Part shown: positions 22,654 through 23,175 of the stretch, one piece after another
How positions within the stretch are numbered: the stretch's first letter is position 1
Layout of the letters: every line of letters starts with the position of its first letter
Source of the DNA: an uncultured Bacteroidales bacterium
GTDB taxonomy: Bacteria; Bacteroidota; Bacteroidia; Bacteroidales; Bacteroidaceae
DNA: 64,000 nucleotides
Direction of reading: 5' to 3'
NCBI GenBank assembly: GCA_902788275.1
Contig: CADAJV010000005.1
Span: 40,609-104,608, forward strand
Notes under the pieces: model-generated
What the model saw: only the letters and a program-made list of their open reading frames with translations
Told to the model about the DNA's origin: nothing
Databases searched by the model: none
Position numbers and translations under genes: made by a program

Positions 22654-22704
22654 AAGAGAAGTAAGGAAAAAAGGAGAAAAAGGAGTAAGGAGTAAGGGAG
22701 TAAG
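22654..22704. repeat. GGAGTAAG-type array (SD-like UAAGGAG reiterated) upstream of the four-helix-bundle gene
   Basis: gaagagaagtaaggaaaaaaggagaaaaaggagtaaggagtaagggagtaag. Its inverse partner is at 23112-23160. Confidence 0.9.
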
Positions 22705-22715
22705 TTATTTAGTCA

Positions 22716-23084
22716 ATGACTAGTTCTTTCAAAGATATCATCGCGTGGCAGAAGGCTCACCAGTTTGTCCTGCTTGTTTACAAGGCAACAGCGTGCTTTC
22801 CCGATTGCGAGAAGTTTTCTTTGGTCTCTCAGTTTCAGCGTGCCGCGGTTTCAATACCTGCCAATATTGCAGAGGGATACCGCAAGGATGGTGTGGGAGA
22901 CAAACTCCGTTTCCTTAATATATCTCAAGGTAGCCTTGAAGAGTGTCGCTATTATATTTTGCTTTCCAAAGACTTGGGATACATCTCCGAAGAAACTTAT
23001 AATATTCTACAGGAAAACATAGAAGAGACAAGCAAACTACTAAACGCCTATTATACTGCAATACGCAGTAATCATGGAAGATAA
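22716..23084 (+). CDS. Four helix bundle protein (23S rRNA IVS protein / Avd-like family), copy 2, inserted between groES and groEL
   Basis: AWQKAHQFV, QFQRAAVSIPANIAEGY and GSLEECRYY motifs. AT-rich relative to groES and groEL. Confidence 0.85.
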   Translation: MTSSFKDIIAWQKAHQFVLLVYKATACFPDCEKFSLVSQFQRAAVSIPANIAEGYRKDGVGDKLRFLNISQGSLEECRYYILLSKDLGYISEETYNILQENIEETSKLLNAYYTAIRSNHGR

Positions 23085-23097
23085 TCAATCAACTTTG

Positions 23098-23160
23098 GGT
23101 AAGGAAGTATTGGAGCAGTGAGTAATCAACTTACTCCTAATCTCCTCACTCCTTACTCCT
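23098..23160. repeat. 48-bp module GGAGCAGTGAGTAATCAACTTACTCCTAATCTCCTCACTCCTTACTCC (23112-23159) = CTTACTCC arm
   Basis: Its reverse complement aligns with 22670-22714. The same module recurs at 25197-25244 and 25283-25327. Confidence 0.9.
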
Positions 23161-23175
23161 AAAAAACAAAAAGCT

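Follow-up and report, generated by a model that had tools for sequence, protein, structure and literature searches.

The window analysed here is a stretch of 64,000 nucleotides from an uncultured Bacteroidales bacterium (GenBank assembly GCA_902788275.1, contig CADAJV010000005.1, forward-strand positions 40,609 to 104,608). In this window, groES and groEL are 522 bp apart, and a single open reading frame (ORF) of 122 amino acids (22716-23084) lies between them, bracketed by two inverted tandem arrays. The encoded protein belongs to a four-helix-bundle family (S23p/IVP), which is otherwise known as the ORF of ribosomal RNA (rRNA) intervening sequences (IVS) and as a relative of Avd, the accessory protein of diversity-generating retroelements (DGRs). 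Here, we describe the ORF and its two arms as a cassette, compare it with sibling cassettes in the window and with homologous loci in other genomes, and weigh how it came to stand in the operon and what its arms may do. An earlier account of the locus, hereafter the sequence-only reading, had placed the end of groES at 22653, the start of groEL at 23176 and a 122-aa gene in the 522-bp gap, and these coordinates are exact.

The groES-groEL spacer and its gene

The locus is composed of two host genes and the parts of the cassette.

22381-22653, plus strand: groES, the host gene upstream (PF00166 match, E=1.4e-31).
22663-22718, plus strand: 5' arm, a purine-rich tandem array of AAGGAGA/AAGGAGT units that leads through the inner boundary GTTATTTAGTCA to the ATG; 22672-22718 is paired in the predicted fold.
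22716-23084, plus strand: four-helix-bundle (S23p/IVP) ORF of 122 amino acids, supported by PF05635/TIGR02436, by an AlphaFold (AF2) fold and by dN/dS.
23085-23115, plus strand: linker from the stop codon to the 3' arm, with two alternative versions among strains that have an identical protein.
23116-23160, plus strand: 3' arm, a pyrimidine-rich array of TTACTCC units, complementary in inverted orientation to the 5' arm.
23161-23175, plus strand: unpaired leader rich in A, TAAAAAACAAAAAGC(T), ahead of the groEL ATG; its TAAAAAA tail is common to related cassettes at a different site.
23176-24807, plus strand: groEL, the host gene downstream (PF00118 match).

The 122-aa protein scores 131.6 bits against PF05635 (cutoff 33.8) and 120.7 bits against TIGR02436 (cutoff 24). 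It has the motif RxxxSxxxNxxE, which is conserved in this family (PMC3936711), and the residues R42, S46, N50 and E53 are invariant in the three paralogues of the window and in 20 homologues. The AF2 model of the monomer consists of four helices that form a bundle, with a pLDDT of 93, and in Foldseek it has TM-scores of 0.90 to Xcc0516 (2gsc), 0.80 to BT_0352 (2rld) and 0.78 to Avd (4dwl; 8ube likewise). The profile scores, the model and the structural matches bear out the family named by the sequence-only reading, an Avd-like four-helix bundle of PF05635/TIGR02436. This family comprises 17,890 clusters at 50% identity (E<=0.001). The cassette is AT-rich, with a GC content of 0.37-0.44 vs 0.50-0.56 in the neighbouring genes. 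When compared with the sister species, the ORF has a dN of 0.10 and a dS of 1.23, which gives a dN/dS of about 0.08; for comparison, groEL has a dN of 0.009 and a dS of 0.85. The ORF is under strong purifying selection.

The fold that the protein shares with Avd, together with a distant sequence similarity, would fit a gene that is a remnant or an accessory of a DGR. Weak matches were found to three Avd entries, with 30.6 bits for bAvd PF22296, 36.2 bits for NF033474 and E=6e-11 for PHROG 3206, which is annotated 'Avd protein of DGR'. However, the two profile scores lie under the curated cut-offs of the Avd models, which are 40 bits for PF22296 and 80 bits for NF033474, and the same type of gene is found in unrelated housekeeping operons. 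The genes within about 3 kb of the cassette are AraC-type, GH127-like, groES, groEL, rubrerythrin and dockerin/lipase, with no reverse transcriptase among them, and a non-exhaustive search showed no template or variable repeats nearby. We consider a DGR remnant or accessory very unlikely.

The 5' arm of the cassette can be described as (GGAGTAA)n that abuts the ATG of the ORF, and the 3' arm is its complement. Segments 22680-22718 and 23116-23154 are 77% complementary over 39 nt without gaps, and the energy of the flank-to-flank duplex is below that of shuffled sequences in two runs (z=-9.3 and -6.6). The inverted arms of about 40 nt described by the sequence-only reading are present, with a complementarity that is better than random. 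In the minimum-free-energy structure of 22640-23180, segment 22672-22718 pairs with 23116-23160 to form a stem of about 36 bp with small bulges, which encloses the whole ORF and outside which the end of groES and the A-rich leader of groEL are single-stranded. Folding of the region had been proposed as a check on the arms, and in the predicted structure they pair. The fold of the whole region has a z of -2.4, and none of 100 shuffles was as stable. Strains that encode an identical protein differ in the length of the 5' spacer (45, 62 or 68 nt) and in whether they have one or two copies of the right module. A CRISPR array was considered and rejected, since the units run head-to-tail without spacers and a PADLOC search for defence systems gave no match.

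Sibling cassettes in an array-rich window

The window has two more cassettes, W2 and W3, whose parts are as follows.

5887-6402, plus strand: cassette W2, between etfA and an acyl-CoA dehydrogenase gene (acd), with arms and a PF05635 ORF.
5887-5918: W2 5' arm, (GAAGTTAA)n.
5919-6296: W2 ORF, 125 amino acids, PF05635.
6300-6327 and 6355-6402: W2 3' arms, (TTAACTTC)n.
61382-61888, plus strand: cassette W3, between a CDP-alcohol phosphatidyltransferase gene and an IspD-like gene.
61382-61451: W3 5' arm, (ATTGAAAA)n.
61452-61808: W3 ORF, 118 amino acids, PF05635.
61845-61888: W3 3' arm, (TTCAATTT)n.

The W2 ORF was located by tblastn, while the W3 ORF was located by its inverted-array bracket alone and was matched to PF05635 only afterwards (E=3.8e-28). 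All three PF05635 genes of the window lie in sense orientation between co-directional housekeeping genes, and each has a purine-rich 5' array and a complementary 3' array, with the units GGAGTAA, GAAGTTAA and ATTGAAAA, respectively. All three cassettes fold arm-to-arm. A census of four-helix-bundle genes, which the sequence-only reading had suggested, was made for the window and found 3 of 3 flanked by arrays. When the 48 genes of the window are ranked by the complementarity of their flanks, the three PF05635 genes are in positions 1, 2 and joint 5th, and apart from these only yajC and groEL score strongly. The first part of the W3 5' array (61382-61394) also encodes the end of the upstream CDP-alcohol phosphatidyltransferase, which reads ...ILGLKD* vs ...ILES* in an array-less allele (L192). 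Since the W3 array supplies the last codons and the stop, arrays can extend into coding sequence.

Tandem arrays are frequent throughout the window. There are 47 merged arrays in the 64 kb, with periods of 6-12 nt and mainly 7-, 8- and 10-nt units, and nearly all of them are intergenic (for example 1152-1223, 1637-1714, 3645-3745, 13669-13808, 27157-27230, 40937-41033 and 51891-51973). The motif GGAGTAAGGAGT, with at most one mismatch, occurs 20 times in the window vs 0.24 expected. In co-directional spacers, purine-rich arrays tend to lie early, after the stop codon, and pyrimidine-rich arrays late, before the start codon (Spearman -0.36, p=0.018). Array adjacency alone is unremarkable here, because arrays fill almost every intergenic region. 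The bracketing of the groES-site gene by arrays, to which the sequence-only reading had given weight, exists, as does the pairing, but it distinguishes this single locus less than had been thought.

The spacer downstream of groEL contains further copies of the cassette's own array and module.

24813-24878, plus strand: (GGAGTAA/A)8 array just past the groEL stop codon, whose unit is that of the cassette's 5' arm and which complements the 3' arm before groEL.
25170-25328, plus strand: two tandem copies of the cassette right-arm module (GCAGCGAGTAATCAACTTACTCCTAACCTCCTTACTCCTTACTCC) in the rubrerythrin leader.

There is no ORF between these two features. The groEL-rubrerythrin spacer (24808-25355) is 548 nt long here and 33 nt long in the sister species (L177), and it consists of (GGAGTAA)8, a terminator-like hairpin, two TAnnTTTG motifs and the two right-arm modules, which are homologous to both allelic versions of the cassette 3' flank. 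It resembles a derivative of the groES-site cassette without the ORF. Because of these arrays and modules and the cassette 3' arm, groEL is itself bracketed by complementary arrays. The gene yajC (42147-42497, minus strand), which is not a four-helix-bundle gene, is likewise flanked by complementary arrays at 42053-42146 and 42498-42610 (z=-5.3). When ORF-less array spacers were folded, both from the window and from the groES-groEL spacers of other species, the hairpins were mostly weak (z between -0.5 and -3.4), and for this reason we do not claim that all arrays form stems.

With such a density of arrays, 47 here while the median for 80 groES loci from other Bacteroidales is 0, and with groEL and yajC bracketed too, the cassette gene could be an ordinary operon gene that is bracketed only through genome-wide array-filled spacers. 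This coincidence is very unlikely. All three four-helix-bundle genes are among the 6 of 48 genes with z<=-3.3 (hypergeometric P ~0.001), whole cassettes have presence/absence alleles, and the same build, with 25 different units, is found in unrelated metagenomes, plasmids of cyanobacteria and the IVS of Coxiella. The data from these other lineages, given below, largely refute it.

Several other repeats were observed in the window. A repeat similar to a miniature inverted-repeat transposable element (MITE), with the ends GTTATCATACGCCCC...GGGGCGTATGATAAC and internal CCCCCTCTA...TAGAGGGGG hairpins, has at least three copies (~8329-8500, ~10273-10485 and ~43750-43900). Families of 21-nt tandem repeats (GAGGCTCTTAGATT... 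and AAATCTAATCGCGC...) recur in several long intergenic regions, at 3366-3505 and 54191-54314 (inverted), 27306-27387 and 62607-62646. At a palindromic junction, GATAGTCATGACTAACGG (8240-8275 and 55665-55690), a purine-rich array is joined directly onto a (CTTAACTT)n array of a different family; this junction resembles the inner arm boundaries of a cassette minus the ORF, and its outer arrays are mutually non-complementary. The palindrome GCCAAGTCCGGACTTGGC and its variants stand beside arrays at 42535, 49680, 49750, 57845 and 60415. An ORF of 3114 amino acids spans 29539-38883.

Insertion, alleles and recurrence in other genomes

When species-representative genomes were scanned with GroES, the groES-groEL spacer could be measured in 76 cases across Bacteroidales. 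These spacers are 12-193 nt long, and none of the 76 contains a four-helix-bundle gene. A few of them have ORF-less arrays, some as inverted pairs (L064, L028, L058, L021, L035 and L019), whose units are unrelated to those of the cassette (TTCAAAG/CTGAACT, AAATGTC/ACATTTA) and whose hairpins are weak (z between -0.7 and -1.3). In relatives this operon spacer is short, and the groES-site cassette is an insertion into it. A sister species with 84% protein identity and the same synteny has a cassette at the same groES-groEL site. An empty allele within the species was sought through exact matches to GroES and to the cassette protein, and all contigs were filled; one candidate (L170) was rejected because its gene call had been missed and its DNA is identical. 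Since all contigs with an identical GroES and the sister species are filled, the insertion at this site is fixed and inherited in a small clade.

The sibling cassettes come and go between strains as whole units. At the W3 site, contigs with an identical IspD-like protein have three alleles: the full cassette, a short 5'-type array TTAGAATTGAAGGATTGAAGGATTGAAAAATTTTAATCATG, and an array-less form CTTAGAATCTTAATTATG. In the array-only allele, an AATT microhomology that corresponds to the base of the stem marks the junction between the 5' arm and the final bases of the 3' arm. Comparison of the W3 alleles reveals no clear target-site duplication. At the W2 site, contigs with an identical EtfA (etfA 97.1% identical in nucleotides) have either the cassette or a 1-nt spacer, TAA-C-ATG; in the filled allele there is an ATG on both sides. 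In the comparison of empty sites proposed by the sequence-only reading, 76 of 76 other Bacteroidales are empty at groES-groEL, and W2 and W3 are polymorphic between strains. ORF-less array-flanked elements are polymorphic too, since one strain only has an insert of about 190 nt, without an ORF, in the right-arm module downstream of groEL (L002 5500-5690 vs window 25215-25230). The ends of this insert are the inverted arrays (TTTGAAC)n and (TTCAAAT)n, and its core of about 105 nt recurs at 15020-15046 (minus strand) of the window with different flanking arrays.

The closest relatives of the groES-site protein at other sites (74-77% identity) are located between etfA and acd in other Prevotella, and one of them was matched in more than 2,600 data blocks. 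These relatives have (GGAGTAA)n arms and the CTCCTTACTCCTAAAAAA tail, as in the groES-site cassette. The window's own copy at the etfA site, W2, is 65% identical to the groES-site protein and has different arms, (GAAGTTAA)n. Because the etfA-acd relatives share the arms and the tail while W2 does not, the ORF and its arms travel together. These relatives also bear on whether the gene is a chaperonin-specific accessory or regulatory gene that was recruited to groESL, as the position kept in two species would allow. Close relatives are found at etfA-acd, in a string of lipid and isoprenoid genes, in conjugation operons of Nostocales plasmids and, reportedly, between cas genes, and the gene is present in 0 of 76 other groESL operons of Bacteroidales. 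A role specific to the chaperonin is very unlikely.

A metagenome scan with the three paralogues of the window gave 80 homologous loci with 52-72% identity, from rumen, gut and other environments, of which 76 had enough flank. The flank duplex has z<=-3.4 in 33 of these 76 loci; with the three cassettes of the window added, the figure is 36 of 79. In the 36 strong cassettes, the 5' flank contains a tandem array in 34, with a modal period of 7 and 25 distinct units, and the pairing of the arms reaches to a few bases from the start and stop codons. The upstream flank is more than 50% purine in 36 of 36. Wherever the orientation of a neighbour could be called, it agreed with that of the cassette in 17 of 17 cases upstream and 18 of 19 downstream, or 35 of 36 together. 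Rfam gave no match in the window nor in 20 homologous loci, which indicates no rRNA context and no known RNA family there. The same build is found in cultured Nostocales, in plasmid C of Trichormus variabilis (CAGAATTCAGAAGTCAGAATTCAGGAGTCAGAATAA-ATG...TGACTCCTGAGTTCT) and in pNPUN02 of Nostoc punctiforme; both cassettes lie inside strings of genes with spacers of 16-41 nt, in conjugation operons. The groES-site cassette is one of a large class, in which the repeat unit changes and the arms stay complementary.

Proposed co-transcription and arm pairing, and relation to known elements

TAnnTTTG is the consensus of the -7 promoter element in Bacteroides. It was used in place of a sigma-70 promoter scan, which was set aside as its matches are uninformative for Bacteroidetes.

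22287-22294, plus strand: Bacteroidetes-type -7 motif TAnnTTTG upstream of groES, the sole such motif in 22000-25100.

The motif is absent from the inside of the groES-site cassette, and the next occurrences after 22287 are at 25105 and 25146, before the rubrerythrin gene. The cassette ORF is on the same strand as groES and groEL. No terminator-like site is found between the two genes, and an A run, in place of a U run, follows the 3' arm. An intrinsic terminator was rejected as an identity for the arms, since a GC-rich stem with a U run is missing between groES and groEL.

Taken together, the locus probably represents an IVS-type cassette that was inserted into the groES-groEL operon and is co-transcribed with it. 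According to the mechanism that we propose, a single transcript would run through groES, the cassette and groEL. In this RNA, the arms would pair in a duplex of about 36 bp, by which the ORF would be looped out, the start codon of the cassette would be buried and the groES stop codon would be brought beside the groEL leader. RNase III may then cut the stem as it does in the IVS of the 23S rRNA of Coxiella and Leptospira, and this would yield separate groES, cassette and groEL RNAs, in keeping with the processing between the two messages that the sequence-only reading had suggested. By analogy with rRNA, the odds for RNase III processing at the arms appear roughly even. The cassette protein would most likely serve the element, in its maintenance or spread, and not the chaperonin. 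The purine-first polarity of the arms and the sense orientation of the ORF are properties at the level of the transcript.

The closest known counterpart is the IVS in helix 45 of the 23S rRNA of Coxiella burnetii, in which AGAAGA is followed by two to three GACAGAT heptamers and by GACAGAA, with the ATG of S23p directly after (PMC4990558). This IVS has a terminal stem of 28 bp, and the RNase III ends, mapped by rapid amplification of cDNA ends (RACE), are located midway along the stem, at the first heptamer; the number of heptamers differs between strains (PMC4990558). The S23p protein was not detected, and its ORF was judged to be decaying, untranslated and dispensable (PMC4990558). The cassettes described here share with the rRNA IVS of Coxiella and Leptospira a PF05635 ORF in sense orientation, purine-rich heptamers that abut the ATG, an enclosing stem, a heptamer number that varies between strains, a GC content below that of the host and a sporadic distribution. 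The IVS-like architecture suggested by the sequence-only reading is thus upheld, down to the heptamers at the ATG. The groES-groEL cassette differs in being located in an mRNA spacer and not in a 23S rRNA helix (9, 25 or 45), and the window contains no rRNA. RNase III cleavage has been demonstrated in Coxiella, while here it is proposed.

The arms could also matter only at the level of DNA, where inverted arrays would be substrates of recombination or replication slippage, as a hairpin or cruciform, and RNase III would be irrelevant. The cassette would then be copied into or deleted from spacers that already have arrays, and the complementarity of the arms would be maintained by templated repair or gene conversion. 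This explanation is in line with the variation of array copy number and right-arm modules, which are exchanged between strains and neighbouring spacers, with the AATT junction at the stem base in the W3 array-only allele, and with the 190-nt ORF-less element in one strain. The lack of an excess of G-U pairs in the sense strand and the high share of perfect matches in the arms, both described below, also fit it. Against it, the purine-rich arm is the 5' one in 36 of 36 strong cassettes, the orientation is sense relative to 35 of 36 neighbours, and the homologous rRNA element is an experimental RNase III substrate. Overall, we consider an action at the DNA level only to be unlikely. It is compatible with an IVS-type, co-transcribed cassette, and both may hold.

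Several observations weigh against such a cassette. When the arms were aligned without favouring either type of transition, 48 mismatches were G-U-compatible vs 74 that were A-C, a deviation in the opposite direction (p=0.02), so that there is no signature of sense RNA. Because this test gave no support, we do not claim covariation as proof of an RNA structure; arrays with differing unit lengths cannot be aligned column by column. The arms are perfect matches at 87% of positions, which fits homogenisation of DNA by templated repair, slippage or conversion at least as well as selection for RNA pairing. Part of the pairing potential comes for free, because arrays fill most spacers and groEL and yajC are bracketed too, and 43 of the 79 cassettes are below the arm threshold. 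The polarity and orientation could instead reflect a need of the ORF for host transcription and for a purine-rich leader. No mobility enzyme or transposase and no clear target-site duplication was found, and the ORF is under purifying selection here, whereas that of Coxiella was judged dispensable. Finally, that the cassette is co-transcribed, that its arms pair in vivo and that RNase III cleaves them are inferences.

Comparison with other elements brings out what is particular to the cassette. RNase III stems between cistrons are found in the early mRNA of phage T7 and in the spacers of rRNA operons, where the duplex is formed by sequences that flank a segment; these stems enclose no conserved gene, do not consist of tandem arrays and show no sign of movement. 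MITEs and the repetitive extragenic palindromes and bacterial interspersed mosaic elements (REP/BIME) are, like the cassette, small and intergenic with inverted ends and no obvious transposase, and ORF-less relatives are present here as well. The cassette differs from them by its ends, which are copy-specific tandem arrays, by its conserved non-enzymatic ORF, by its strict orientation to the host transcript and by the lack of a clear target duplication. Long simple sequence repeats and the short tandemly repeated repetitive (STRR) sequences of cyanobacteria are comparable intergenic tandem repeats. The TAACTGA heptamer repeats of Beggiatoaceae, Cyanobacteria and Bacteroidetes are intergenic tandem 7-nt units, often directly before start codons and oriented to the downstream gene (PMC4679880). 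They were described as solitary direct repeats with a patchy taxonomic spread, and a translational regulator was proposed, with no mechanism evident and no mention of a four-helix-bundle gene or of inverted pairing (PMC4679880). The arrays of the window are similar, being tandem, about 7 nt in period, intergenic and oriented relative to genes. They differ in that the cassettes pair complementary arrays around a gene and that array-only alleles exist at a cassette site. For Avd, it has been reported that in DGRs it acts on RNA with pairing flanks (bioRxiv 10.1101/2023.10.23.563531).

In the literature searched, with subscription journals outside its coverage, we found no description of such an architecture outside rRNA, either as an ORF with inverted arrays in a protein-coding operon or as alleles with and without it. 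The family has been found inside cas operons, for instance as cmr3-IVP-cmr2 (PMC3936711), and has been linked to CRISPR arrays (PMC10910872). As a wider and more speculative proposal, which we regard as possible though doubtful, four-helix-bundle/IVS cassettes may be widespread unrecognised mobile elements of operon spacers, with rRNA as one kind of host. Their orphan arms might then give rise to the heptamer arrays of Bacteroidetes, Cyanobacteria and Beggiatoaceae, and the Avd-like protein might act on the RNA stem of its own element, perhaps together with a reverse transcriptase supplied in trans; the DGR Avd would then be linked in origin to these elements.

If the locus is rightly read as an IVS-type cassette, the concept of the IVS, which since the early 1990s has been confined to fragmented rRNA, would extend to ordinary mRNAs, and a large share of the 17,890-cluster family would be explained as the cargo of one kind of element. 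There would also be a concrete candidate for the origin of intergenic heptamer arrays. The presence of the family in cas operons and its linkage to CRISPR arrays would be explained, because cassettes would insert between any co-transcribed genes and their arms resemble repeat arrays. Processing of the stem could shift the stoichiometry of highly expressed housekeeping operons such as groESL and etfBA-acd in very abundant gut and rumen Prevotella, and the presence/absence alleles between strains would make the question testable among natural isolates.

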